Shown here: positions 571 to 13,107 of the stretch, piece by piece
Numbering within the stretch: the first letter of the stretch is position 1
Layout of the letters: every line of letters begins with the position of its first letter
Source: a virus
Lineage: Duplodnaviria > Heunggongvirae > Uroviricota > Caudoviricetes
DNA: 13,528 nt
Virus record (IMG/VR): IMGVR_UViG_2778261256_000011
Reading direction: 5' to 3' (one strand)
Program-made: the position numbers and the translations under genes
Notes under the pieces: model-generated
Databases searched by the model: none
What the model was told of the DNA's origin: nothing
What the model saw: only the letters and a program-made list of their open reading frames with translations

Positions 571-3500
571 ATGAAGGCTCTGATGGTCAGAACTGACTTC
601 TCCCTGGGAGAGTCGGCTCTAAAAGCAGAAAACGCGGTGAAAATCGCGAGAGACGCTGGCTACACCGCTGTCATTTCCGCCGACAGCATGAATATTGCCA
701 GTGTAATCCCTCTGCAACGTGCCGCTGGCGACGACATGTCGGTAATTTGTGGCGTTAAGCTGAATGTTGTCGACGATCCGACATACGAGCACCGCGCTCG
801 CTTGGCGAAAGAGTCAGGAAGATGTATGGAATCATTAGTTCGTGATCGCAGCTACTGTTTCACGGCACTGATAAAGAATGAACAAGGTTATCGCGACGTG
901 TGCGAACTGATGACCTTAGCGAACAAACGCGAGCAATTCTACTTTGTCCCGCGTCTGGCGCTTGAGCAGCTGGCAGCCGCATATGCCAAAGGCAACATCA
1001 TCCTGCTGACGTCCGACATTGGCAGTGTATTCCAGCGCCGGGACTTCGCAAAAATTATCGGGACGCTGGTCACAGCTGGCGGTCGCGATAACTTCTACAG
1101 CGTGGTTTATCCGCACCCTACCCCATTCTACGACCAGATTAACGTCCGGGCGATGAAAGTGGCGAGCGCACTGAAAATAGAGCCAGTGGCGTTCTATCCC
1201 GCTTATTACGAAGCGATCGACGACGCTGACATTAAAGACATTGCGCACATGGTTACGAACAACATCAAAATCGACCAGCCGCATCGTCTGCGCATCCCCC
1301 ACCAGCGAGATAACGCTGTTAATGGTCGTCGCCATCTCCTTGAAGCGCTGAAAGCCTTCTCCGTTCGCATGGGCGTACCGGTAACAGCTGCAATGGCCTC
1401 AACAACGCAGGACACCATTATTGAAGCCTGCACATGGCGCTGGCATGAACTGCCACCAGCACTGCCCAAGATGGCAGACGACGAGCCTGCAACGCTGATG
1501 AAGCTGGCTGTCGCGGGGCTACGCAAGCGTCTAACTACTAAAGAGTTTGGCTACACACCACAGGCTTCTGAGCACCGAGTGTATGTTGAGCGACTGAAGT
1601 ACGAAATGGACACACTGACCCGTCTGGGCTTCTGTGGCTACTTCCTGATGGTACGCGATCTGATGAATCACAGCCGTGAAACTGGCATTCCTGTCGGGCC
1701 AGGTCGTGGTTCCTCTGCCGGTTCTCTGGTGGCGTGGTGCATAGGCATAACCAACGTCGATCCTATCCGTCACGGTCTTCTGTTTGAGCGTTTCATCAAC
1801 CCTGAACGTCTTGACTTACCGGATGCGGATCTGGACTTCAGCCAGGCACGTCGTCATGAGGTGATCGAGTATCTGAATGAACGCTATGGCGAAGATTACG
1901 TTGCCGGTATTCCAAACTTCACCTATCTGGGCGCCGCTTCTGCGCTGCGAGACACTGCGCGTATTTACGGTGTCGACGCTGCGGATATGGCGGTATCCAA
2001 AGAGTTCAAGAATCTGGAAGACGATAGCCTGTCTCTGGAAGAGCTGCGCGAGCAACTGGCCAGCCTGGACAAATACGCCACGAAAAACCCGGAAGCGTTC
2101 AAAGCGGCGTGTAAGCTACAAAGCCTGATGCGTGGTTTTGGCCGTCATGCAGCGGGGATGATCGTCGCTGGCGTTCCACTGGTAGAGCGCACGCCCGTCG
2201 AGCTGCGTGGCAACGCTCGCTGTATTGCATTCGATAAACGTTACTGCGAGGCAATGGGGCTGATTAAGCTGGACGTTCTCGGTCTGGCAACGCTCGATCT
2301 GCTGGATAGCGCGAAACGCTACATCAAAGAGAGTACCGGGGAAGACATCAATCTCGATGCTATCCCACTGGACGATCGCAAAGTTCTGGATGGGTTCGCT
2401 GCAGGGTACACTCAGGGCGTATTCCAGCTGGAGTCCGGCCCCATGCGCAAGCTGCTTAAAGATCTGGGCGGTGGCATTGAGCCAATGAGCTTCAAAACCG
2501 TTGTCGCCACGACCGCACTCTTCCGACCTGGCCCGATTCAATCAGGCATGTTGGACGACTATGTCTCCGTGGCCAAAGGCTTCATGGCTCCACATTCAAT
2601 TCATCCGCGTCTTGAGGAAGTCACCCGGGAGACTAATGGTGTTTTGCTCTATCAGGAACAAATCATGCAAAGTTCCCGAGTACTTGCCGGGTTCTCTATG
2701 GCCGAAGCAGACGCTCTGCGTTCCGCTATCGGTAAAAAGAACATGGATAAGATGAAAGCGATCGGCAGCGATTTTGTAGAACGAGCACAAGCAGGCTGGG
2801 TGACACTGTCACTCAAAAATGGAGGTACTGTAGAGGTTCACAAACACGCAAAACTGGATTGCTCAGACGGTAAGCGTAGAAGCTACAGCGAGGCTATTAG
2901 TGACGGCATAGACTACGTGGAGATCGTCTCTGAACAAGAAGGTCTCAGTAAGGAAAAAGCCCAAGAAATATGGGACGCCTTTGAGAAGTTCGGTGGATAT
3001 GCCTTCAACAAATCACACAGCGTTGCTTATTCTTTAATCAGCTATCAGTCTATGTGGTTAAAGACACATTACCCTGCTGAGTTCTTCGCTGCTGCGCTCA
3101 CCATTCTGGGCGAGGATAAGCACCAGGGCTTAGTTAAAGATGCGCTGACCTATGGCATTCGCGTATTGCCACCAGACGTTAACGTGTCATCTAACCGAAT
3201 TGAGATCCGCACGCTGGAAGACGGCAGTCAGGTTCTGTATGCACCATTCTCTGCTGTGAAAGGCTGCTCTGAGAATGGTTGCCAGGCCATCATGAGAGCG
3301 CGTGAGAAAGTTGGCGGCAAATTCGAATCACTGGCGCAATTTGAGGAATCTGTCGAGAAGCGAGCATGTAATAGCCGGGTACGCGAGTCGCTGCAAAAAG
3401 TCGGTGCGTTCGCATCGATTGAGCCTGGCTGTCTGCCAGCGACAGATCCGGAACGACTGCGCGACCAGGCAGAGTTGATGGGCAATCTGGTGATCGACGC

Positions 3501-4077
3501 TGTAAAAGCCTCTCGACCGTTCGAGATGAACCCTAAGCGCTCTGCCGAGGTGAATGTACTGATGACTCGCATGGCGGCCGAAATGGGTCTGGGAGACGAC
3601 CTGATCCGCCCAAGCATTGGCATTAAGCCGAAAATCATGGTCATTCTGGACAACGCGAACGGCAATGATGGGCGTACCGGCTACTTCATGGAGAACGGCT
3701 ACGACGACTTTAAGGCGAAGTTGCTTACTGCAGGCGATCTGCGCATGGGCGATCTCTACGTCACAGGCGTGTGCAAAAAGGTGAAGGACAAAGAGAAGGA
3801 CTACACCAAAGACGAGATCGGCCAGTTCACCGACTTTATGCGTGAAGAGATCAATCTGGTGCGTCCGACCTATGTACTGACGTGTGGCAGCCGGGCGACG
3901 TCGCTCTTCAACAACAAGAGCAAACCATCCGACCTGGTTGGACGCAAAGAGTATCTGCCGGAGCTGGATGCGACCGTTTTCTACGGATTTAACCCGAATA
4001 TCCTTTACTTCCGACCGGAAGAAGGAGAGCGACTGGAGGCCATTCTGACTGATATTGCGGAGACGATAAATAAGTAA
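571..4077 (+). CDS. dnaE: DNA polymerase III alpha subunit homologue (DnaE-type, family C replicative polymerase), 1168 aa
   Basis: Translation contains the hallmark DnaE palm/fingers motifs: GYFLMVRDLMNHSRETGIPVGPGRGSSAGSLVAWCIGITNVDPIRHGLLFERFINPERLDLPDADLDF, LFRPGPIQSGMLDDY, VLLYQEQIMQ, and FGGYAFNKSHSVAYSLISYQSMWLKTHYPAEFFAA. Length is close to E. coli DnaE (1160 aa). The N-terminal PHP region (MVRTDFSLGES) lacks the two His of the usual HxH metal motif, so it is a divergent paralogue. AAGG Shine-Dalgarno 9 nt before ATG 571; TAA TAA double stop at 4075-4080. Confidence 0.9.
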   Translation: MKALMVRTDFSLGESALKAENAVKIARDAGYTAVISADSMNIASVIPLQRAAGDDMSVICGVKLNVVDDPTYEHRARLAKESGRCMESLVRDRSYCFTALIKNEQGYRDVCELMTLANKREQFYFVPRLALEQLAAAYAKGNIILLTSDIGSVFQRRDFAKIIGTLVTAGGRDNFYSVVYPHPTPFYDQINVRAMKVASALKIEPVAFYPAYYEAIDDADIKDIAHMVTNNIKIDQPHRLRIPHQRDNAVNGRRHLLEALKAFSVRMGVPVTAAMASTTQDTIIEACTWRWHELPPALPKMADDEPATLMKLAVAGLRKRLTTKEFGYTPQASEHRVYVERLKYEMDTLTRLGFCGYFLMVRDLMNHSRETGIPVGPGRGSSAGSLVAWCIGITNVDPIRHGLLFERFINPERLDLPDADLDFSQARRHEVIEYLNERYGEDYVAGIPNFTYLGAASALRDTARIYGVDAADMAVSKEFKNLEDDSLSLEELREQLASLDKYATKNPEAFKAACKLQSLMRGFGRHAAGMIVAGVPLVERTPVELRGNARCIAFDKRYCEAMGLIKLDVLGLATLDLLDSAKRYIKESTGEDINLDAIPLDDRKVLDGFAAGYTQGVFQLESGPMRKLLKDLGGGIEPMSFKTVVATTALFRPGPIQSGMLDDYVSVAKGFMAPHSIHPRLEEVTRETNGVLLYQEQIMQSSRVLAGFSMAEADALRSAIGKKNMDKMKAIGSDFVERAQAGWVTLSLKNGGTVEVHKHAKLDCSDGKRRSYSEAISDGIDYVEIVSEQEGLSKEKAQEIWDAFEKFGGYAFNKSHSVAYSLISYQSMWLKTHYPAEFFAAALTILGEDKHQGLVKDALTYGIRVLPPDVNVSSNRIEIRTLEDGSQVLYAPFSAVKGCSENGCQAIMRAREKVGGKFESLAQFEESVEKRACNSRVRESLQKVGAFASIEPGCLPATDPERLRDQAELMGNLVIDAVKASRPFEMNPKRSAEVNVLMTRMAAEMGLGDDLIRPSIGIKPKIMVILDNANGNDGRTGYFMENGYDDFKAKLLTAGDLRMGDLYVTGVCKKVKDKEKDYTKDEIGQFTDFMREEINLVRPTYVLTCGSRATSLFNNKSKPSDLVGRKEYLPELDATVFYGFNPNILYFRPEEGERLEAILTDIAETINK

Positions 4078-4082
4078 TAAAG

Positions 4083-4107
4083 AAAAACCCGCCATTTGGC
4101 GGGTTTT
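4083..4107. terminator. Bidirectional rho-independent terminator between convergent genes
   Basis: aaaaaCCCGCCatttGGCGGGtttt: GC-rich 6-bp stem (4088-4093 / 4098-4103), 4-nt loop, T-run on the plus strand and A-run (T-run on minus) on the other side. It sits between the polymerase stop and the stop of the minus-strand gene. Confidence 0.65.
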
Positions 4108-4666
4108 ATGCGCAAATTTTTTCGCAGTCTTGCGAGTGACTGAGTGAGCGAGTAACTCTCTCCACCTCATGAATGTCGCCCAACGATCTTATACGCAGGG
4201 CAAGATTCCACGTACTCAATGTGCGCGCGTTACGCACCAGTTCTTCCCGTGCTTTTTCGTCTTTGCTGTCAAGACGACCGCAGTCGTTCAACCATTTAGC
4301 GACTTCCGCCCAGTCCCAGAGTGGAGACTGACCGCTGATACGCTGAACAGGGCAAGGAAAATCACCTTTGCCACGTAATCCGTCTTTAAGCAGAGTAATA
4401 GCCTGGCGCGTTAAGCCAGAGAGTTGAGCAATATCGCTCAAGCCTACCAGTGCTGAATCTACCGATTCCACCACTGCGCCAATGCCTGCTGTTTCAATAT
4501 CAAGGATTGCCGATTCGATTGCTTCATCTAAAGATTTAGCTTCTCGGTCAAATTCTACATACACTGAGTTTCCGTAGTAGCAAATGAGCGCATCATCGCA
4601 ACCGTGGCTATACAGAGCATCTGCGACTACGCAGTACTGACTACAGGTTATCAGAATTATCCCCAT
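4106..4666 (-). CDS. Hypothetical protein with a central helix-turn-helix-like segment; N-terminal region weakly HicB/UPF0150-like
   Basis: 186-aa ORF starting at ATG (plus 4664-4666), convergent with the polymerase gene. Segment LSDIAQLSGLTRQAITLL looks like an HTH recognition unit; the preceding SLDEAIESAILDIETAG resembles the helix of HicB-type antitoxin domains. No convincing Shine-Dalgarno and no partner toxin ORF nearby, so both the call and the function are tentative. Confidence 0.4.
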   Translation of the reverse strand: MGIILITCSQYCVVADALYSHGCDDALICYYGNSVYVEFDREAKSLDEAIESAILDIETAGIGAVVESVDSALVGLSDIAQLSGLTRQAITLLKDGLRGKGDFPCPVQRISGQSPLWDWAEVAKWLNDCGRLDSKDEKAREELVRNARTLSTWNLALRIRSLGDIHEVERVTRSLSHSQDCEKICA

Positions 4667-4756
4667 TTACATCAGCTTATCTACGTCAGCCCTCAAGTTC
4701 TTCAGCAAGCCAGCTCCACCGCCTGATTCCAACATGATAAAATTGATATGCGAAAA

Positions 4757-4775
4757 TAAGTATATAGATAACATT
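4757..4775 (+). promoter_or_regulatory. Copy 1 of bipartite motif TAAGTA-N6-TA(T/A)CATT (TAAGTAtatagaTAACATT), directly abutting ATG 4776
   Basis: Shares the TAAGTA half-site, the 6-nt spacing and 6/7 of the second half-site with the copies at 5226-5244 and 10003-10021. All three lie upstream of plus-strand genes. Confidence 0.3.
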
Positions 4776-5207
4776 ATGAGCACCGATATCTACGAAAAAA
4801 TCATGTCCGATCTGGAGTTCGACCGCGACAATCTGGAGGAAGTCTGGCGTCAGCAACCGCGTCTGTTGATGGAGTATGGCTCTAAGCTGGCACGGGCAGA
4901 ACGTGAGGTTGCAGATGCAAAACTCTCTCTCGACGCGATCGAGGCAAAAATCTATGACAACGAGCGTAAGAGCTTGAGTATGAATGGAATTAAGTTTAAT
5001 GAATCCGTACTGGAAGCGAAGGTTAGAACCAACCCGCAATACCTCGCAAAGCGCCAGAAACTCGACGATGCTCGACACATTGCAGACCTGTACAAGCACG
5101 CTGTAGCCGCCTTCTCCCACCGCCGCGATATGATTGTCCAGGCGTCGAAGATGGCTATCGTAGAGATAGAGCGTCTGGGGGCCGAACGATTCCATTTACC
5201 CCGTTAA
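4776..5207 (+). CDS. Hypothetical charged, predicted coiled-coil protein (143 aa from ATG 4776; the ORF track's alternative start at 4734 gives 157 aa)
   Basis: Open frame with protein-like composition (ARAEREVADAKLSLDAIEAKIYDNERKSL). The overlapping minus-strand ORF 4686-5195 has Cys-rich, non-protein-like composition. Neither candidate start has a clear Shine-Dalgarno; 4776 was chosen because the conserved motif copy lies immediately upstream of it. Confidence 0.45.
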   Translation: MSTDIYEKIMSDLEFDRDNLEEVWRQQPRLLMEYGSKLARAEREVADAKLSLDAIEAKIYDNERKSLSMNGIKFNESVLEAKVRTNPQYLAKRQKLDDARHIADLYKHAVAAFSHRRDMIVQASKMAIVEIERLGAERFHLPR

Positions 5208-5225
5208 TTTATGCTAGATAGTAAG

Positions 5226-5244
5226 TAAGTACTAATCTATCATT
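5226..5244 (+). promoter_or_regulatory. Copy 2 of bipartite motif TAAGTA-N6-TATCATT (TAAGTActaatcTATCATT), about 80 nt upstream of the ssb start
   Basis: 15/19 positions identical to the copy at 10003-10021 with identical half-site spacing; the core AGTACT is palindromic. Confidence 0.3.
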
Positions 5245-5326
5245 CTTCTCGCTCGAAAGAGCCACGAACAAACGAACGCCCAATGCGCATAGCGCCAATG
5301 GCCACAATCACAACAAGGAGAAATAC

Positions 5327-6343
5327 ATGTCTAAGTCATTACTTGATCTGCTTAACAAGACCCGTGGCGATATTGCTTCCAAACGTGGCAATAACATTGA
5401 TTTGACCCGTCTGAAAGATGGCAATAACTATCTGCGCATTTTTCCGAACAAGGACGATCCGAATGGCGTGTTCTTCCAGACTTTCGGTATGCACTACGTT
5501 AAGCATCAGAATGAGGAAGGCAAAGATGTAACCACCGCCTATATCTGCGAACAACACACCCACGGCCACGCTTGCCAGCTGTGTGAGATGGTTATGGAAG
5601 GTCGCGCTCGCTTTAAGGGCAACAAAGCGATGGAAGAGCGCATTAATAGTATGCGTGCTACGCCGCGTTATCTGGTCAACGGTGTTCTGTCTGCGCGTGA
5701 AGACTTTGCGGACGCAGAGAAATGCCAGCTAATTGAGCTGCCGTCTACGGTCTTCGACGATATCTGCAAAGTGATGTCCGAAGATATTGCGGACGATATT
5801 GGCAACCCACTGAGCAAAGAAGAAGGCTATGCGTTCCTGATTAAACGCACCGGTTCCGGTCGTGACACCAAGTACGACGTATCCCCGAAACGTAAAGTCT
5901 ACAAAGGCGACATTCCTGAGAAGCTCTGGACTACCCAACACGATCTGATCGCATATGCGAACCAGTCTGACGAAACTCGTTTGCTGTCCACGGCTCGCAC
6001 TATGGGTCGTCTGATTGGTATTGCGGCTCCGGCAGCAACTATGCCCTCACCAGCCATTTCTTCCGCTGCAAAATCAGCCGCAGCTGGACTGCCAGGCTTT
6101 GGCTCTATCACTGGACATACGGAAGGCACAGCTGCTGTCGCTACAGCACATACTCCGGCGCCAGAGTCCACCAGCCTGGTTGATGAAGAGATCCTGCGAG
6201 CAGCTGAAGCTGAGTTCAAACCGGAAGAAGCGAAAGCTCCGGAAGCCACCGAAGCCGCAAGTGCTTCAGCATCTGCTGCCGCTGCATCTGTACCAGCTGA
6301 TGAAGGTCTCGATGACCTGCTGGCTGAACTGGACGCTCTGTAA
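5327..6343 (+). CDS. T4 gp32-like single-stranded DNA-binding protein with zinc-binding subdomain, low-complexity linker and acidic C-terminal tail
   Basis: N-terminal pattern LKDGNNYLRIFPNKDDPNGVFF parallels the gp32 LDNAGNGQAVIRFLPSKND region. His/Cys cluster CEQHTHGHACQLC fits the gp32 His-Cys3 zinc site. C-terminal third is Ala/Ser/Pro/Glu-rich and ends in the acidic DDLLAELDAL. Strong AAGGAG Shine-Dalgarno 6 nt before ATG 5327; TAA stop followed by a terminator. Confidence 0.75.
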   Translation: MSKSLLDLLNKTRGDIASKRGNNIDLTRLKDGNNYLRIFPNKDDPNGVFFQTFGMHYVKHQNEEGKDVTTAYICEQHTHGHACQLCEMVMEGRARFKGNKAMEERINSMRATPRYLVNGVLSAREDFADAEKCQLIELPSTVFDDICKVMSEDIADDIGNPLSKEEGYAFLIKRTGSGRDTKYDVSPKRKVYKGDIPEKLWTTQHDLIAYANQSDETRLLSTARTMGRLIGIAAPAATMPSPAISSAAKSAAAGLPGFGSITGHTEGTAAVATAHTPAPESTSLVDEEILRAAEAEFKPEEAKAPEATEAASASASAAAASVPADEGLDDLLAELDAL

Positions 6344-6359
6344 TCCCATAACGTGACCA

Positions 6360-6388
6360 GTAAGGCGTCTGCGGACGCCTTACTTTTT
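6360..6388 (+). terminator. Rho-independent terminator after ssb
   Basis: GTAAGGCGTCtgcgGACGCCTTAC: perfect 10-bp stem with a 4-nt loop, followed by TTTTT (6384-6388). Confidence 0.75.
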
Positions 6389-6403
6389 GGAAGGAGTGTA
6401 CCG

Positions 6404-7348
6404 GTGAATTATCTCTTTGTGGACGGTAACAGCCTGGGCTATTACCACCAGCAATCCGACAAATTACACAACGGCGAGATGGAAGTTCAGGCGGCTTTTG
6501 GCTTCGTGAAGAACGTTCGTCGTTACGCCTCAATTCTCCATGCCCGGCCAATGATCTTGTGGGATGGATTCAGCGACAAACGTCGCGACTTCTACCCGGA
6601 GTACAAAGCGAACCGCGACGACGACCCGGACATGAAGAAGATGAAAGAAGGCTTTGCCATCCAGAAGCCGTACATCTTGAAAATGATGACCGCGCTGGGC
6701 GTTAACCAACTCATTGCAAAGGACGCAGAAGCGGATGACCTGGCTGGAATGCTGGTCTCTCGTCTGGCTCCGCAGCCGACTGTTGACCATATCTATCTGC
6801 TAACGGGCGATGGCGACTGGCTCCAGCTTGTTCGTGAGAACGTGAGCTGGATAAGCCTGCGTGAAGACGCCAAGCACAAGCAGGTGAACTTCGAACAGTT
6901 CGCAGAGCTGACCGGTCTGCCGACCCCACGCGCGTTTCTGGAAGCGAAAGCGTTGCAGGGCGATAACTCGGACAACATCAAAGGCGTAGGTGGCATTGGT
7001 GATGGTGGCGCGAAAGAGCTGCTTCATGAATGGGGAAGCGTGGCCGCAATGGTACGCGGCATTAACGACGGTTCCATTGTCATCAACAAAGGTCGCTATA
7101 AGACGGCATTCAACAAGCTGGCAAAGAACGCCTTCAACGAGAAGACGGGCTGCCGGATGCTCGAAGCCTTTAAGCGCAACATGATGCTGATGAACCTTAT
7201 CGACACAAAATTCCCACCCAGCGAAATCGAGTCGATTAAAGGCGCACGCGATATGAGCGCCTTTGAACAGATGTGTTACGAGCTGAATTTCCGTTCGTTT
7301 CTGGAAGATCTGGAAGTGTTTGTTCTGCCGTTTGAGAGGTATTGCTGA
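6404..7348 (+). CDS. 5'-3' exonuclease / flap endonuclease (DNA Pol I 5'-nuclease / T5 D15 / T4 RNase H family), GTG start
   Basis: Conserved family motifs: LFVDGNSLGYY (N-terminal metal site), EADDLAGMLVS, LLTGDGDWLQL, and the H3TH motif ALQGDNSDNIKGVGGIGDGGAKELL. The GTG at 6404 is 7 nt after GGAAGGAG and lies just downstream of the terminator hairpin; the ATG at 6353 used by the ORF track would put the hairpin inside the coding sequence. TGA stop at 7346-7348 overlaps the next ATG (TGATG). Confidence 0.85.
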   Translation: MNYLFVDGNSLGYYHQQSDKLHNGEMEVQAAFGFVKNVRRYASILHARPMILWDGFSDKRRDFYPEYKANRDDDPDMKKMKEGFAIQKPYILKMMTALGVNQLIAKDAEADDLAGMLVSRLAPQPTVDHIYLLTGDGDWLQLVRENVSWISLREDAKHKQVNFEQFAELTGLPTPRAFLEAKALQGDNSDNIKGVGGIGDGGAKELLHEWGSVAAMVRGINDGSIVINKGRYKTAFNKLAKNAFNEKTGCRMLEAFKRNMMLMNLIDTKFPPSEIESIKGARDMSAFEQMCYELNFRSFLEDLEVFVLPFERYC

Positions 7349-7616: not shown

Positions 7617-9959
7617 ATGGCAAAAGGCAAATCCGCACTGGCACTGGCGCTGAAAAAGAAAATCGGCAGCAATGACGAGATTCAGAAGGTCTCCCACTGG
7701 ATTGACTCCGGTTTCCCTCCACTGAACAAAGCCATTTCCTGACGTTACGACGGTGGTTTTCCGTGTGGGCGTATCGTTGAAGTCTTCGGGCCACCAAGCG
7801 CGGGGAAATGTGTTACCGCAGACACCATGCTGCTGACGGAGCGTGGAATGGTAACAGTGAAAGAACTGTTTGAGATTGAGGGGCACAAAGCAACATGCAC
7901 TACTCGCGATGTAGAGCATAACGTTGGACTCATCAATGAAAATGGCGTGATAGAGAAGACCTCACACCTGACATGGAACAACCGTCGCAAATTCAAGCGC
8001 ATTAAGCTGGCATCAGGGGGTTACATCGAGGCTACGTTCCGTCACCCAATTCGTGTGGTTGACGACTTAGGCAATATCGTCTGGCGGTATGCTGAAAAAA
8101 TCAGTGTAGGCGACACGATTCCTTCAATGGTTGGCACACATCAATTCGGCGATCAGCACTTGGATGCCAATATCGCAAAACTGATGGGCTATTTAATTGC
8201 TGACGGATACGTGGCCTCTGAAAATTCTGTGCATTTTTCTAACACAGATCCATTCATCAAGGATGAGTACTACCGCCTCATTTCGCTGGTATCAGACAAG
8301 ATGCCAGTTACGAGAAAACATAACGGCTCGGAAGACCATGTGCTGTTTAGCAAAGAGGTGCGTTCGCTGCTTTTTAAAGAATATGGTCTGGAGTATGAGA
8401 AAGCTGCTGGCAAGCAGGTTCCGTTGAGTGTGCGTCGCGCCAATAGCGAGGCTCAAATTGCATTCCTTCGCGGCTACTTTGAGCTGGAATGCCACGTCAA
8501 TGATGGTCGCTGCATTGAGGTTGTGAGCGCGAGTGGGTTGCTGCTACAGCAAATTCGCCTCATGCTCCTGAATCTGGGGATTACGTCAACTATCTCTGAA
8601 AAACACGTCGCAGGTTATAAAAACATATATTACCGGCTGTCATTCAGTGGCTCTAACTACGACCTTTTCCTGTCAACGATTGGGTTCGAGTCTCCGGCTC
8701 GTTTAGCAGTGGCAACCAAACGGGACATTAGTTTTGACCGCACTTATTTAGGCTACGTTCCGCACATCAGCGGCTTAGTGAAATCACTCTACGAGTCACT
8801 CACCAAGACCTCTCGTAAAGACTACGTTCTGGTAGATCACGTTATTGGCCGCGGCGATCGTGTCGGAATAGACAAACTGCGAGAAATCTATGTCTCCTTC
8901 ATTGGCAGAAAGAATCGTTTTAACGAGCATCTGTTTGCACAACTGGCAGCGGTAATTGACTCTAACTTGTTCTACGACGAAGTCGTGGCTATTGAGGAAG
9001 GTGAAGCACCAACGTTCGACGTAGCGATGCCGGAAACACACTCTTTCTGGTCTAACGGGATTATCAGCCACAACACATTCCTCGCGACGGCTGCGATGGT
9101 GTCAGCACAAACACAGGATGGTCTGGCCGTATTCCTTGACCACGAAAACAGTTTCGACGTTGGTCTGGCGGTAGCGAACGGACTGAACGCCGACGAAGAC
9201 GACGGTCAGTGGGTCTACAAACAGCCGGATACCTTCGAAGACTCCGTAGAGCTGATCGGCACAATCCTCAAGCTGGTGCGCGACGAAGAGCTTATTCCGG
9301 AAACAGCCCCTATCTGCATCGTAGCCGACTCTCTGGCGTCGATGGTTCCGAACTCGAAGGCTGAGAAGTTCGACAAGATGGCAGAAGGCACTGCGAAGGA
9401 CAAAGATCAGCTGAACATGAACGACAACACGGCGCTGGCGCGCGCGACAAGTGCGAACTTCCCTACTCTGGCGCTTTGGGCGCGTAAGTACAACGCGTGC
9501 ATCATCTTCTTGAACCAGGTGCGTACCAAAATTGGTGTGATGTTTGGCGATCCGACTACGTCTCCGGGTGGCGACTCTCCGAAGTTCTACGCGTCGGTGC
9601 GCATCCGTCTGGGTGCATCCGTCATGAAGGATGGCAAAGAGAAGATCGGACAGGACGTTGGCGCCGAGTGCATTAAAAACAAAGTCGCGCCTCCGTTTGG
9701 CAAATGCTCATGGAAATTCTACTTCGACCCGACTCGCGGGCTGGACGTCGTCGAGTCTCTGGTTGAATACATGCTGGAGGAAGGATACCTGCCCAAGAGC
9801 GCCAGCGGGCGTGTGGAAATTGGCGAGAAGAAATACACCAAATCGCAGATCGTCGAGATGTACCGCGAGAAGCCACTCCCGGAAATCATCGCAGCACTCC
9901 AGGCGATAGACGAACGGCGAGCGAAAGAGTCGTCACCAGCAGAGACAGAAGAAGCGTAA
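7617..9959 (+). CDS. recA: RecA recombinase homologue (bacterial RecA type) interrupted by an intein in the P-loop and by an in-frame TGA in the N-extein; may be a pseudogene or need stop-codon readthrough
   Basis: AAGGAG Shine-Dalgarno 7 nt before ATG 7617. N-extein MAKGKSALALALKKKIGSNDEIQKVSHWIDSGFPPLNKAIS, then TGA (7740-7742), then in the same frame RYDGGFPCGRIVEVFGPPSAGK (Walker A; compare E. coli RecA [21 protein letters not shown]). C-extein TFLATAAMVSAQ ... CIIFLNQVRTKIGVMFGDPTTSPGGDSPKFYASVRIRLGA closely matches RecA [38 protein letters not shown]. No ATG/GTG/TTG lies in frame between the TGA and the P-loop. Spliced product would be about 357 aa. Confidence 0.85.
7809..9074 (+). mobile_element. 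Intein (422 aa) with LAGLIDADG homing endonuclease domain, inserted between the Walker A Lys and the following Thr of RecA
   Basis: Begins with Cys directly after GPPSAGK (CVTADTMLLTE, block A) and ends with SHN followed by a +1 Thr (block G). Block B TxxH is present (ATFRHPIRV). Two LAGLIDADG motifs (LMGYLIADGYV and FLRGYFELECHV). Block F-like VVAIEEGEAPTFDVAMPETHSFWSNGIISHN. Removing the segment restores a contiguous GPPSAGK-TFLATAAM P-loop. Confidence 0.85.
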
Positions 9960-9965
9960 TCACAA

Positions 9966-9987
9966 GACGTCCATTGGACGCCTTTTT
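9966..9987 (+). terminator. Probable rho-independent terminator after recA
   Basis: GACGTCCattGGACGCC: 7-bp stem with one mismatch and a 3-nt loop, followed by TTTTT (9983-9987), 7 nt after the recA TAA. Confidence 0.5.
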
Positions 9988-10002
9988 ATACTTGAAAGTA
10001 TA

Positions 10003-10021
10003 TAAGTACTTACTTATCATT
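10003..10021 (+). promoter_or_regulatory. Copy 3 of bipartite motif TAAGTA-N6-TATCATT (TAAGTActtactTATCATT), 28 nt upstream of ATG 10050
   Basis: Contains the perfect 10-bp palindrome TAAGTACTTA; matches the other two copies in both half-sites and spacing. Confidence 0.3.
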
Positions 10022-10049: not shown

Positions 10050-10250
10050 ATGATTAAGGGTTATCTCATGGCTGTTTCAGCAGTGGTATCAGTCTGCTTT
10101 ATTTACGGTTTACTGGTTCCATCGCTTATATCAGCTAAAAGCGATCTGGCCTTCTTTATCGGACTTGCCATCGCTTTAATCTTCCCGGTTGCCTTGTTAA
10201 AAGCTGGCCGCAGGTATATCAACTCACTCAATAAAACTAAGGAGAAGTAA
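10050..10250 (+). CDS. Small (66 aa) predicted two-helix membrane protein
   Basis: Two hydrophobic stretches (AVSAVVSVCFIYGLLVPSLI and LAFFIGLAIALIFPVALL) separated by a short polar turn; basic C-terminus. AGGA 5 nt before the ATG; TAA stop. Confidence 0.5.
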   Translation: MIKGYLMAVSAVVSVCFIYGLLVPSLISAKSDLAFFIGLAIALIFPVALLKAGRRYINSLNKTKEK

Positions 10251-10516: not shown

Positions 10517-10677
10517 CTTTATGGTGTCATAAACTTAAATCTAGCGCCGGGTAGAACAAGTTAATCGAACGATGTAGCGGCCATTTAGGCGTTACAGAAA
10601 GAACAGAATTTTAAATTTATAGTGAAGCCGTTGCAGCAACTTTGTGGGGTGCAACCAACACTGAACAGGAAAAGAAA

Positions 10678-13107
10678 ATGGATCATAGTGTACATAACAA
10701 GCTCATCTCATTTATTTGGAACATTGCCGACGACTGTTTACGTGATGTGTACGTTCGCGGTAAGTACCGCGATGTGATTTTACCTATGGTGGTATTACGA
10801 CGTTTAGATACGTTACTTGAACCCACCAAAGAAGCCGTGCTTGAAGAGGTCAAGTTCCAAAAAGAAGAGATGCAAGCCACGGAGCTTGATGATGAACCAT
10901 TGAAGGCGGCTAGTGGTTATGTTTTTTACAATACATCTAAATGGACCCTGAAATCCCTGTTCAACACCGCAACGAATAACCAACAGATATTACTCGCCAA
11001 CTTTGAAGAGTACCTGCTTGGCTTTAGCGATAATGTTAAAGAAATCATTGAATGCTTTAACCTCAAGTTGCAAATTCGTCACATGGCCTCAAAGCAAGTC
11101 CTTCTTGATGTCGTCGAAAAGTTTGTTTCCCCTTACATCAACTTAACTCATGAAACGGTCGAAGACCCAGATGGCAACAAGATGCCAGCCCTTACTAACC
11201 TGGGTATGGGGTACGTGTTCGAAGAGTTGATCCGTAAGTTCAACGAGGAGAATAACGAAGAAGCCGGTGAGCACTTTACACCTAGGGAAGTGATTGAGCT
11301 GATGACACACTTGGTTTTTGACCCAGTGAAAGAGCAGCTACCATTGACCATGACCGTTTACGACCCTGCGTGTGGTAGCGGTGGTATGCTCACTGAATCT
11401 CAAAACTTCATTGAAGAGAAATACCCGAACGACAGCCGAGATATTTACCTTTACGGCAAAGAGATCAATGACGAGACCTACGCGATTTGTAAATCGGACA
11501 TGATGATCAAAGGTAACAACCCTGAGAACATCAAGGTAGGCTCAACCTTGTCTACCGACGAGTTTGCGGCTTCTCGCTTTGACTTTATGTTGTCTAACCC
11601 GCCATACGGTAAGAGTTGGGCGTCTGAACAGAAGTACATTAAAGACGGCAGTGATGTGATTGACCCGCGTTTTAAGGTTAGCCTGAAAGACTATTGGGGA
11701 AATCTCGAAGTGGTGGATGCCACGCCACGTTCGAGTGATGGCCAGCTGCTTTTCTTAATGGAGATGGTCAACAAGATGAAAGATCCGAGCGTAAGTCCAT
11801 TAGGCAGCCGGATTGCCTCTGTTCATAACGGCTCATCGCTCTTTACCGGTGATGCGGGCAGTGGCGAAAGTAATATTCGTCGCTTCATCATTGAAAACGA
11901 CATGCTAGATGCCATCGTTCAGTTACCTAATAACCTGTTCTATAACACTGGCATTACCACTTACATTTGGGTGTTGAACAACAATAAACCTGAGGCGCGT
12001 AAAGGTAAGGTGCAATTAATTGATGCCAGCTTGCTCTACCGTAAGTTGCGCAAGAACTTAGGTAACAAAAACTGCGAATTTGCGCCTGAGCACATCACGG
12101 AAATTACCGATACTTACCTCGCGTGTAAGGATGTTGAAAGAGCACTGGATGCAAACAATGATCCTGTTGGCATCGCCAGTAAGGTATTCAGCAATGACGA
12201 TTTTGGCTACTACAAAGTCACTATAGAGCGCCCAGATCGCCGCAAAGCCAAGTTTACTCAAGACGCAATAGCCCCACTGCGTTTTGATAAGCAACTTAGT
12301 GAAGTGATGGAGTACGTGTACGCAGAGCACGGCGAACGTGTTTACGAAAAAACTGGCTACGGGTCAGCTCAGAAAAAGAGCTTCTTAAAATCCATCGAGA
12401 AAGACATTCTTTCTTGGTGTGAAGATAACGACATCAGTCTCAATGCTAAGGCTAAGGCCAAACTGCTTGATGTGAAACACTGGCTGGCGCTAAAAGCATT
12501 GCTTGAAACTGCACAAACGCTGATGGCTGACATCGGTAGCATTGAATTTGATGACTTCAATAGCTTTAAAACCCAAGTTGATAAATCGCTAAAAGCCCAT
12601 GCTATTAAGCTTTCAGCACCTGAGAAAAATGCCATTCTTCACGCGGTGAGCTGGTATGACGAAACCGCCAAGAAAGTGGTTAAAAAGGTAGTTAAATTAA
12701 CGGGTGATAAATTAAACGACCTGCTGGAGCGCTATGAGTGTGAAGTCGCTGACTTGCCAGATTTTGGTTATTACCCCGTTCCTTCAGCAGAAGGCGGTAA
12801 AAAAGGCGAGTATATCACTTACGAGACCAATTCAGACCTGCGAGATACAGAATCTGTTCCATTAAAGCAAAGCATTTACCAGTACTTCCTAGATGAAGTG
12901 AAGCCTCATGTCGATGAAGCATGGATAAACCTAGATACGGTAAAAATTGGCTATGAAATCAGCTTCAATAAGTATTTCTACCGTCATAAACCGCTGCGTA
13001 GTTTAGAAGAGGTCGCAACCGACATCATCAACCTAGAACAAAAAGCCGAAGGTCTCATTGCGCAGATATTGGGTGTTAAAGTGGCGGAAGCTCAGGGAGA
13101 AGCGTAA
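10678..13107 (+). CDS. hsdM: Type I restriction-modification system methyltransferase subunit HsdM (long form, about 809 aa, with C-terminal extension)
   Basis: N-terminal HsdM domain (ISFIWNIADDCLRDVYVRGKYRDVILPMVVLRRLD), AdoMet motif I VYDPACGSGGML, and N6-adenine catalytic motif IV LSNPPYG. Start moved to ATG 10678 (AGGA 7 nt upstream) rather than the upstream alternative-codon start at 10642. TAA stop overlaps the next ATG (TAATG). Confidence 0.85.
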   Translation: MDHSVHNKLISFIWNIADDCLRDVYVRGKYRDVILPMVVLRRLDTLLEPTKEAVLEEVKFQKEEMQATELDDEPLKAASGYVFYNTSKWTLKSLFNTATNNQQILLANFEEYLLGFSDNVKEIIECFNLKLQIRHMASKQVLLDVVEKFVSPYINLTHETVEDPDGNKMPALTNLGMGYVFEELIRKFNEENNEEAGEHFTPREVIELMTHLVFDPVKEQLPLTMTVYDPACGSGGMLTESQNFIEEKYPNDSRDIYLYGKEINDETYAICKSDMMIKGNNPENIKVGSTLSTDEFAASRFDFMLSNPPYGKSWASEQKYIKDGSDVIDPRFKVSLKDYWGNLEVVDATPRSSDGQLLFLMEMVNKMKDPSVSPLGSRIASVHNGSSLFTGDAGSGESNIRRFIIENDMLDAIVQLPNNLFYNTGITTYIWVLNNNKPEARKGKVQLIDASLLYRKLRKNLGNKNCEFAPEHITEITDTYLACKDVERALDANNDPVGIASKVFSNDDFGYYKVTIERPDRRKAKFTQDAIAPLRFDKQLSEVMEYVYAEHGERVYEKTGYGSAQKKSFLKSIEKDILSWCEDNDISLNAKAKAKLLDVKHWLALKALLETAQTLMADIGSIEFDDFNSFKTQVDKSLKAHAIKLSAPEKNAILHAVSWYDETAKKVVKKVVKLTGDKLNDLLERYECEVADLPDFGYYPVPSAEGGKKGEYITYETNSDLRDTESVPLKQSIYQYFLDEVKPHVDEAWINLDTVKIGYEISFNKYFYRHKPLRSLEEVATDIINLEQKAEGLIAQILGVKVAEAQGEA

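Follow-up and report, generated by a model that had tools for sequence, protein, structure and literature searches.

Sigma-70-type promoters with a putative embedded operator: a recurrent palindrome in SSU5-like phage-plasmids

The stretch of DNA analyzed in this report (hereafter the window) consists of 13,528 nucleotides of a virus of the class Caudoviricetes (IMG/VR record IMGVR_UViG_2778261256_000011). It aligns to Salmonella phage SSU5 (46445-56134) at 94.5% identity and to E. coli phage-plasmids, among them NZ_CP110979 and pNT1F34-108k, at 97-99.5%; it belongs to an E. coli SSU5-like phage-plasmid. Among its genes are those encoding DnaE, a UvsY-like recombination mediator, a T4 gp32-like single-strand DNA-binding protein (ssb), RecA and a small membrane protein (Table 1). 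An initial annotation had reported a bipartite motif, TAAGTA-N6-TAWCATT, upstream of three of these genes. All three copies proved to be exact matches on the plus strand, compared to 0.00 expected in 200 dinucleotide-preserving shuffles, and both the palindromic core and the 10-bp palindrome noticed in the third copy are real. With two mismatches allowed, the sole addition was a fourth match at 10761, which lies inside the hsdM coding sequence and is supported by no model of the family. Our main finding is that two of the three copies belong to a larger unit, in which a palindrome that is probably an operator fills the spacer of a sigma-70-type promoter, and that the same palindrome recurs throughout the genomes of SSU5-like phage-plasmids.

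Table 1. Coordinates of the motif copies, promoter elements and genes of the window
Feature	Position	Strand	Remarks
Initial motif, copy 1	4757..4775	+	TAAGTATATAGATAACATT
Initial motif, copy 2	5226..5244	+	TAAGTACTAATCTATCATT; inner left arm, centre, right arm and -10
Initial motif, copy 3	10003..10021	+	TAAGTACTTACTTATCATT
Conserved TTGATA upstream of copy 1	4743..4748	+	ATTGATA invariant in five genomes
-35-like TAGATA, copy 2 unit (upstream of ssb)	5215..5220	+	T.GAT invariant in five genomes; TTGATA in KP636
Putative palindromic operator, copy 2	5221..5240		20 bp; GTAAGTAA-GTAC-TAATCTAT; arms 7/8 and 5/8 relative to ATAAGTAA and TTACTTAT
-10 TATCAT, copy 2	5238..5243	+	Overlaps last 3 nt of right arm; TAT.AT conserved
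Intrinsic terminator	9968..9990	+	Ends recA-intein transcript, directly upstream of copy 3 promoter; stem CGTCCATTGGACG, then T run
-35 TTGAAA, copy 3 unit	9992..9997	+	TTGA invariant in four genomes
Putative palindromic operator, copy 3	9998..10017		20 bp; GTATATAA-GTAC-TTACTTAT; arms 5/8 and 8/8
-10 TATCAT, copy 3	10015..10020	+	TAT.AT invariant
DnaE	571-4077
186-aa open reading frame	4106-4666	-	Cyrano counterpart annotated HicB
UvsY-like recombination mediator gene	4776..5207	+	Cyrano annotation; start ATG 4776 or ATG 4803
T4 gp32-like single-strand DNA-binding protein gene (ssb)	5327..6343	+	Pfam gp32, E = 7.7e-72; downstream of copy 2 unit
5'-3' exonuclease	6353-7348
RecA interrupted by LAGLIDADG intein	7617-9959
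Small membrane-protein gene	10050..10250	+	SSU5 and Cyrano annotation; downstream of copy 3 unit
Type I HsdM methyltransferase	10642-13107		Pfam N6_Mtase and HsdM_N

The boundaries first drawn for the motif turned out to be wrong, as the reported string is the right two-thirds of a composite unit and combines part of a 20-26 bp palindrome with promoter hexamers. In a scan of the SSU5 genome, the matches shared a longer context near the palindrome ATGATAAGTAAGTACTTACTTATCAT, on both strands. The architecture, which is clear from the more distant relative pRHBSTW-00636_4 (hereafter KP636), is that of two 8-nt inverted arms, ATAAGTAA and TTACTTAT, placed around a variable 4-nt centre. TAAGTA corresponds to the inner left arm plus the centre, and is not a -35 box; TAWCATT is a -10 hexamer overlapping the right arm. 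It had been stated that the motif does not look like a sigma-70 -35/-10 pair. This does not hold for copies 2 and 3, in which the second half-site is the -10 TATCAT, preceded at a distance of exactly 17 nt by a -35-like hexamer; this is within the 16-18 bp spacing of sigma-70 promoters. A consensus scan gave 9/12 consensus positions for copy 2 (TAGATA-17-TATCAT) and 10/12 for copy 3 (TTGAAA-17-TATCAT). In both copies the palindrome takes up the whole spacer and runs 3 nt into the -10, at predicted positions -29 to -10; transcription is predicted to start near 5250 for copy 2 and at A10027 for copy 3.

Comparison with relatives supports this delineation. Across four to five genomes, the two hexamers and the two arms stay invariant while the flanks diverge, and the palindrome is the only conserved element besides the hexamers in these promoter regions. 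The arms of copy 2 are invariant in the window, SSU5, Cyrano, pJN2-26 and KP636, and Yersinia pestis pMT1 carries both units of the window. TATCAT is replaced by TATTAT in pMT1 and pJN2-26 (copy 2) and in pMT1 (copy 3), a change that keeps the -10 consensus and loses the string first reported. The terminator that precedes the copy 3 promoter shows a compensatory T:A to C:G change of its stem in pMT1. The two functions suggested at the outset, an element-specific promoter or an operator for an element-encoded regulator, were therefore each partly right, as the unit appears to be a promoter with an embedded operator.

The three copies had been presented as equivalent, which is correct for two of them only. 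Copies 2 and 3 are strong members of the family, with position weight matrix (PWM) scores of 27-28 and 31 bits, respectively, whereas copy 1 is weak: its 12.4 bits are under the threshold of 13.7 and also under the best shuffle (19.2). Only TAAG and the upstream TTGATA of copy 1 are kept in relatives, and the TAACATT half varies (TAACGCT in SSU5, TATTAGA in Cyrano, TAACAAA in pJN2-26 and TATCAAA in pMT1). The relatives' alignments revealed no conserved -10 for copy 1, which does not have the -35/-10 spacing of a sigma-70 promoter. Copy 1 would be at best a single left-arm half-site (AATAAGTA) devoid of a right arm, and TTGATA is possibly the -35 box of the uvsY-like gene. The first candidate start codon of this gene, ATG 4776, abuts copy 1 without a ribosome-binding site and is GTG in Cyrano, whose annotation uses the conserved second ATG (window 4803).

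The palindrome ATAAGTAA-N4-TTACTTAT, hereafter motif A, was then counted with a symmetric two-arm model, relative to shuffled genomes. SSU5 contains 26 sites, Cyrano 23, KP636 26, and pNT1F34-108k, which represents the lineage of the window, 27; the corresponding shuffles contain 0-1 in each case. Moreover, 22 site centres are non-coding in each of the four genomes, where non-coding DNA represents about 11-12% (p = 1e-16 to 1e-19). A genome-wide PWM scan for intergenic enrichment, which the initial annotation had proposed, is thus strongly positive. AT-richness does not explain the enrichment, as 18 sites lie wholly within annotated intergenic segments of SSU5, compared to 0.9 (maximum 4) in dinucleotide shuffles of the same DNA. 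Of the SSU5 intergenic gaps that reach 60 nt, 19 of 42 contain a site in the 0-85 kb part and 0 of 16 in the 85-103 kb part. The enrichment concerns intergenic DNA of the structural, replication and nucleotide-metabolism modules, and ssb, nrdA, thyX, the ligase region and further replication genes are among those with a site ahead of them. As would be expected of an operator regulon, copies are numerous on lytic operons and none lies on maintenance or lysogeny genes.

Cyrano, with about 85% DNA identity, and KP636, whose single-strand DNA-binding protein (SSB) is only 48% identical, have their sites at syntenic positions: among others, past the capsid gene, within the portal gene at its 3' end, and ahead of ssb, nrdA and the membrane-protein gene. 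In an Aeromonas caviae phage-plasmid (55% GC, SSB about 26% identical), the cognate palindrome is TGATCAGTAA-N4-TTACTGATCA (TCAGTAA-N4-TTACTGA), with 29 sites versus 0.2 expected; its geometry and AGTAA/TTACT core are as in the enterobacterial genomes, and one arm position differs, the third, which is A in Enterobacterales and C in Aeromonas. The distance from site to start codon ranges from 11 to more than 400 nt, and the median site centre lies 23.5 nt after the upstream stop codon. Strong sigma-70 geometry, defined with approximate matrices as at least the 99th percentile of random positions, is directed towards the gene at 16 of 75 sites and in reverse at 4 of 75; the gene-directed cases belong to a few orthologous groups. 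Overall, the palindrome overlaps core promoter elements at about 20% of the family sites. A one-directional promoter model was rejected: strand-aware expectation maximization placed only 33 of 50 sites in gene orientation, and sites facing the other way are conserved from one genome to another.

The arms do not covary. Among 68 distinct sites, we counted 461 Watson-Crick arm pairs for 457 expected from column composition (z = 0.47), and G:T and A:C arm mismatches are equally common. Folded as RNA, the window copies are not more stable than their shuffled versions (z about -1.2), and Rfam gave no match in the window. The half-sites are thus conserved independently, as sequence, which indicates that the palindrome is bound by a dimeric sequence-specific protein and does not act as a hairpin. 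The motif string was not found in any paper of the literature searched, nor did the searchable literature yield a description of this regulon.

Taken together, these observations make it reasonably probable that the units are sigma-70 promoters with an embedded operator, that they are part of a regulon with about 25 sites per genome among SSU5-like phage-plasmids, and that the regulator is a repressor, most likely of the Xre family. Copies 2 and 3 would each consist of a sigma-70-type promoter (-35, 17-bp spacer, -10) with the 20-bp palindrome filling the spacer. An element-encoded dimeric DNA-binding protein sitting on the palindrome would block RNA polymerase, and so silence the recombination/replication operon (from ssb onward) and the membrane-protein operon during the plasmid-prophage state. 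The same type of site occupies about 25 positions over structural, replication and nucleotide-metabolism genes in every SSU5-like phage-plasmid examined, and the regulon is probably a switch that silences viral genes while the element lives as a plasmid. Sites that have no promoter, of which SSU5 5468-5493 is an example, may be roadblocks, auxiliary or cooperative sites, or weak promoters. Repression itself, the identity of Xre as its agent and the transcription start sites are what we infer from this arrangement.

Expression was considered in RNA sequencing (RNA-seq) data of a lysogen of Cyrano, which is a relative and not the element studied here (background 9.8). The value for Xre is 95.8, and the first genes after the sites have a median log2 of 3.06, for a floor of 2.32; in this relative, genes downstream of the sites are silent in the lysogen and the candidate repressor is expressed. 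CYRAN_56, the orthologue of the copy 3 gene, has a promoter close to consensus; its expression does not exceed the detection floor in lysogeny broth (LB) and gains 5.3 log2 after 6 h in macrophages. We favour repression because promoters that are near consensus, spaced by 17 bp and provided with a conserved -35 precede genes that are nevertheless silent in the Cyrano lysogen. The only genes directly downstream of motif A that are clearly expressed in the LB lysogen are CYRAN_81 (78657-78791) and CYRAN_34 (34791-35573), with 117 and 44, respectively, compared to 9.8; leakiness or a different regulation of their sites may account for this.

The most likely binder is the Xre-family helix-turn-helix (HTH) protein encoded beside the integrase (CYRAN_45 family), which we prefer on evidence that is circumstantial but consistent. 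The pNT1F34-108k representative is WP_193115165.1. The protein occurs across the plasmid family, and its distribution among plasmids parallels that of SSB (865 versus 977 records, with near-identical genus counts). In pNT1F34 and Cyrano, its own promoter, TTGATG-17-TACCAT, surrounds a variant site, ATCAGTAA-GCAC-TTACCATA, in the same register; tandem sites cover the Xre start in KP636, and in Aeromonas the Xre homologue (E = 1e-9) is preceded, at about 60 nt, by a cognate site. The Xre gene is absent from SSU5, described in the literature as virulent, and the lack of the integrase/Xre module is offered as an explanation for this behaviour.

Two other candidate binders were rejected. The FljA-family protein (SSU5_121) gave no HTH match, its only match in Aeromonas is annotated Hfq, and its expression in the lysogen is weak (18, for a background of 9.8); it is probably an RNA-binding protein. 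Its gene belongs to the core of the family (SSU5 96897-97343, CYRAN_114, KP636 94043-94591; Pfam PF03614 Flag1_repress, E = 3e-81). The product is a strong homologue of FljA, the 'repressor of phase-1 flagellin', and the match to the Hfq-annotated gene is a weak one confined to the C-terminal half. The protein may be an RNA-binding regulator, or a means for the element to affect host flagellin. As for the window open reading frame at 4106-4666 (minus strand), it has no Pfam match, and the annotation of its Cyrano counterpart as a HicB antitoxin makes it probably a local toxin-antitoxin regulator rather than the global binder.

A second palindrome, motif B (AAGAAAACAA-N-TTGTTTA, that is, AAACAA-N-TTGTTT), is present in 11 exact copies in SSU5 and 0 in shuffles. 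All are intergenic (positions 81, 30449, 42729, 80773, 82468, 87625, 87941, 88370, 90740, 92759 and 94525), and relaxed copies number about 16-21 per genome in the four enterobacterial genomes SSU5, Cyrano, pNT1F34 and KP636. None was found in the window or in the Aeromonas relative. Motif B has a promoter context of its own: it is often paired around a GATAAT -10 and abuts the ribosome-binding site. It precedes terS, parA, dnaB, cobT and nrdB, as well as most of the small genes at 80-98 kb, and is distributed in a manner largely complementary to motif A. Only motif A is found on the structural genes; the small-gene region at 85-95 kb carries motif B predominantly or exclusively, and the replication genes carry both. 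Motif B is probably the operator set of a second regulator.

Several observations weigh against a repressor-operator regulon bound by Xre. About 70% of the sites have no convincing -35/-10 in either orientation, and several closely follow a stop codon, precede a terminator hairpin or cover a start codon, positions for which simple promoter occlusion does not account. SSU5 keeps all sites and yet has no Xre gene, and the variant sites upstream of the Xre gene, in four lineages, score under the family threshold. Motif B could equally be the operators of the master repressor, in which case motif A would belong to another factor. Finally, the Cyrano RNA-seq data reveal no site-specific transcript discontinuity once gap length is controlled. 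Taken junction by junction, transcript levels do not rise in general across the sites (p = 0.21-0.99). Steps at the sites are larger in absolute terms than at junctions as a whole (p about 0.01-0.03), but not when compared to junctions whose gap is 40 nt or more. With this control, the visible step-ups from gene 11 to 12, 55 to 56 and 59 to 60 are anecdotal, and these data do not discriminate a repressor from an activator.

The main alternative, which we hold to be unlikely, is that the sites are activator-dependent promoters akin to the late promoters of phage P1. The palindrome near -20 would replace or supplement the -35 and bind an element-encoded activator of early lytic growth, so that motif A would mark a middle/late class and motif B a repressor-controlled early class. 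Most sites do have TAnnnT beside the right arm and no -35 (TTG stands at the -35 position in 2 of about 22 SSU5 sites), and the distribution of motifs A and B over the gene modules looks like temporal classes. Moreover, the P1 late promoters, which also speak against repression, demonstrate that a palindrome between -35 and -10 can be an activator site: P1 has 11 promoters with the Lpa box AAGTTACTT, which resembles the core AAGTACTT found here, and like most sites here they combine a -10 with a short upstream inverted repeat and no -35, in many copies. Under partial induction, step-ups are seen at some -35-less sites (Cyrano 11 to 12, 33 to 34). The resemblance to P1 has its limits, however. 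The Lpa promoters use a 9-bp repeat in place of the -35, whereas the window copies have a conserved -35, a palindrome of 20 bp (20-26 bp in the family) and a core that is similar, not identical; and the Lpa promoters are limited to late genes (morphogenesis, lysis), whereas motif A is found on early-type and late-type genes alike. No Lpa homologue was detected by tblastn in five genomes (all E > 0.9; best 0.91). With a conserved near-consensus -35 at the optimal 17 bp, the window copies and other orthologous groups should need no activator, and yet their genes are silent in the lysogen. The mixed orientation of the sites relative to genes, with anti-oriented sites conserved, and the lack of an overall step-up are also unfavourable to activation.

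It is improbable, more so than activation, that the operator regulon is as proposed and has a different binder, for example one of the two ParB/Srx-like proteins, with the sites serving a KorB-like global silencer or being dispersed centromere-like elements, or else some other core protein. A family site lies between the UvsW helicase operon and the divergent ParB-like genes in four lineages (SSU5, Cyrano, KP636 and Aeromonas), and these genes are present in SSU5, which keeps all sites. Against this, expression of CYRAN_119, the ParB-like gene of Cyrano, does not exceed the detection floor in the LB lysogen, the very state in which silencing is required; the sites are unlike known parS or OB sequences; and no autoregulatory multi-site cluster was seen. 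Far less probable still, and disfavoured by us, is an element acting at the RNA level, in which hairpins serve processing or stability, or are targets of the FljA-family (possibly Sm-like) protein. Many sites are intercistronic and just past stop codons, and the FljA-family gene is core to the family. FljA is reported to act on fliC mRNA. However, the lack of covariation, the weak folds and the absence of an Rfam match described above argue against such an element, as do the position of the palindrome upstream of the predicted +1 in the window copies and its variable distance to the start codon. Chance similarity of AT-rich intergenic DNA, with which copy 1 alone is compatible, is refuted for copies 2 and 3 by the family counts (23-29 sites versus 0-1 in shuffles) and by the conservation of positions across deep divergence, and can be considered negligible.

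The regulon resembles the C1 operators of P1 and the stoperators of mycobacteriophage L5 in kind, and is a member of neither family. As in P1, the host of the sites is a plasmid prophage of about 100 kb, and one type of site extends over many lytic operons and overlaps sigma-70 promoters. Nevertheless, the C1 operators are asymmetric 17-mers (ATTGCTCTAATAAATT), whereas the sites here are palindromes of unrelated sequence, and tblastn revealed no C1 homologue (E > 1.8 in all genomes). According to the P1 annotation, the C1 repressor gene carries operators; its counterpart here would be the variant sites below the family threshold upstream of Xre. P1 late genes use the separate Lpa system, while one motif here covers structural and replication genes. 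L5 stoperators number about 25-30 per genome. They occur mainly in the short gaps between genes of lytic operons, often beside stop or start codons, and many have no promoter; the sites described here share these features. In contrast, the stoperators are 13 bp long, asymmetric and orientation-dependent, whereas 20-bp palindromes are found here with 33 of 50 sites co-directional; a block of elongation at these sites is hypothetical. The gp71 stoperators of L5 are reportedly the subject of an article by Brown et al. in EMBO J in 1997.

The sites can also be likened to those of the lambdoid Cro/CI proteins, of the Xre family, in which dyad-symmetric sites of 17-20 bp for HTH dimers overlap promoters and mediate autoregulation; by analogy, a similar mode of binding may operate here. 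Lambdoid phages have few operators, clustered in one immunity region, whereas about 25 single sites are dispersed over 85 kb in the present case. Another dispersed palindromic set is found on plasmids of the RK2/IncP group. Their KorB, a ParB-family protein, has about 12 dispersed palindromic OB operators, some at promoters and others far from any, and sets a precedent for a ParB-type binder. The sequences are unrelated to motif A, and in the lysogen of Cyrano no expression of the ParB-like gene is seen.

Other features of the window and of its relatives were noted. The first 90-96 bases of the window match the end of an IS1 copy, and homology to the SSU5-like backbone starts only at position 396, so that an IS1 insertion or a rearrangement is located just upstream of dnaE; in intact relatives, cobT/moxR lie upstream of dnaE, and the integrase/Xre module further upstream. 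Comparison of window 4667-4775 with SSU5 51186-51729 shows that about 430 bp are missing. In SSU5 this segment holds SSU5_055, whose positional equivalent in Cyrano is annotated as a HicA toxin, so that the HicB-like open reading frame (4106-4666, minus strand) is left without its partner. A conserved block, CTCGAAAGAGCCACGAAC, occupies positions 5253-5270 in the predicted 5' untranslated region of the gp32-like ssb and is partly kept even in KP636; by analogy with the T4 gene 32 leader, it could be a site of translational autoregulation.

The RecA intein, with its LAGLIDADG homing endonuclease, sits in the P-loop (GPPSAGKC/V..., the slash marking the insertion point), and recA is intein-less in SSU5 and pMT1. 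The N-extein of the window recA has an in-frame TGA at 7740-7742, which is GGA in SSU5 and pNT1F34, and either a nonsense mutation (pseudogene) or a sequencing error would account for it. The membrane-protein gene is followed by hsdM in the window, by a complete hsdM-hsdS-DUF4268-hsdR cassette in pNT1F34, and by an SPFH/stomatin-like gene in place of hsdM in SSU5, pMT1 and Cyrano. Lastly, a repeat family of three copies consists of long hairpins with GC stems, GAACCTGCTTC(C/T)GTATATA...TATACGGAAGCAGG, each with a T run behind it, in SSU5 (about 33.48, 78.33 and 103.29 kb), Cyrano (31184, 78108 and 108366) and pNT1F34 (38451, 70558 and 93044). These hairpins are terminator-like and conserved in number and position, and their AT-rich loops resemble the operator motif.

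It is conceivable, if somewhat doubtful, that a single small Xre repressor silences the element through about 25 sites, some of them in promoter spacers and most of them promoter-less roadblocks or cooperative anchors, and that this circuit is paired with an independent one based on motif B. If true, the system would be a Gram-negative counterpart of the mycobacteriophage stoperators, with symmetric sites and a specificity that drifts from Aeromonas to Yersinia. Motifs A and B would split the genome into two control circuits, and the silencing network would cover Y. pestis pMT1 and, probably, both S. Typhi pHCM2 and resistance-carrying elements of E. coli and Klebsiella.

More generally, the choice between plasmid maintenance and lytic growth is essentially uncharacterized in elements of the SSU5 type. 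The family includes Y. pestis pMT1, and the literature places in it Salmonella Typhi pHCM2, pLF82/Cyrano and many carriers of resistance genes in E. coli and Klebsiella. A defined operator at about 25 positions per genome, together with a specific candidate repressor, makes the question of lysis versus maintenance directly testable, and the operator sequence provides a signature by which lytic transcription units can be annotated across hundreds of plasmid records.

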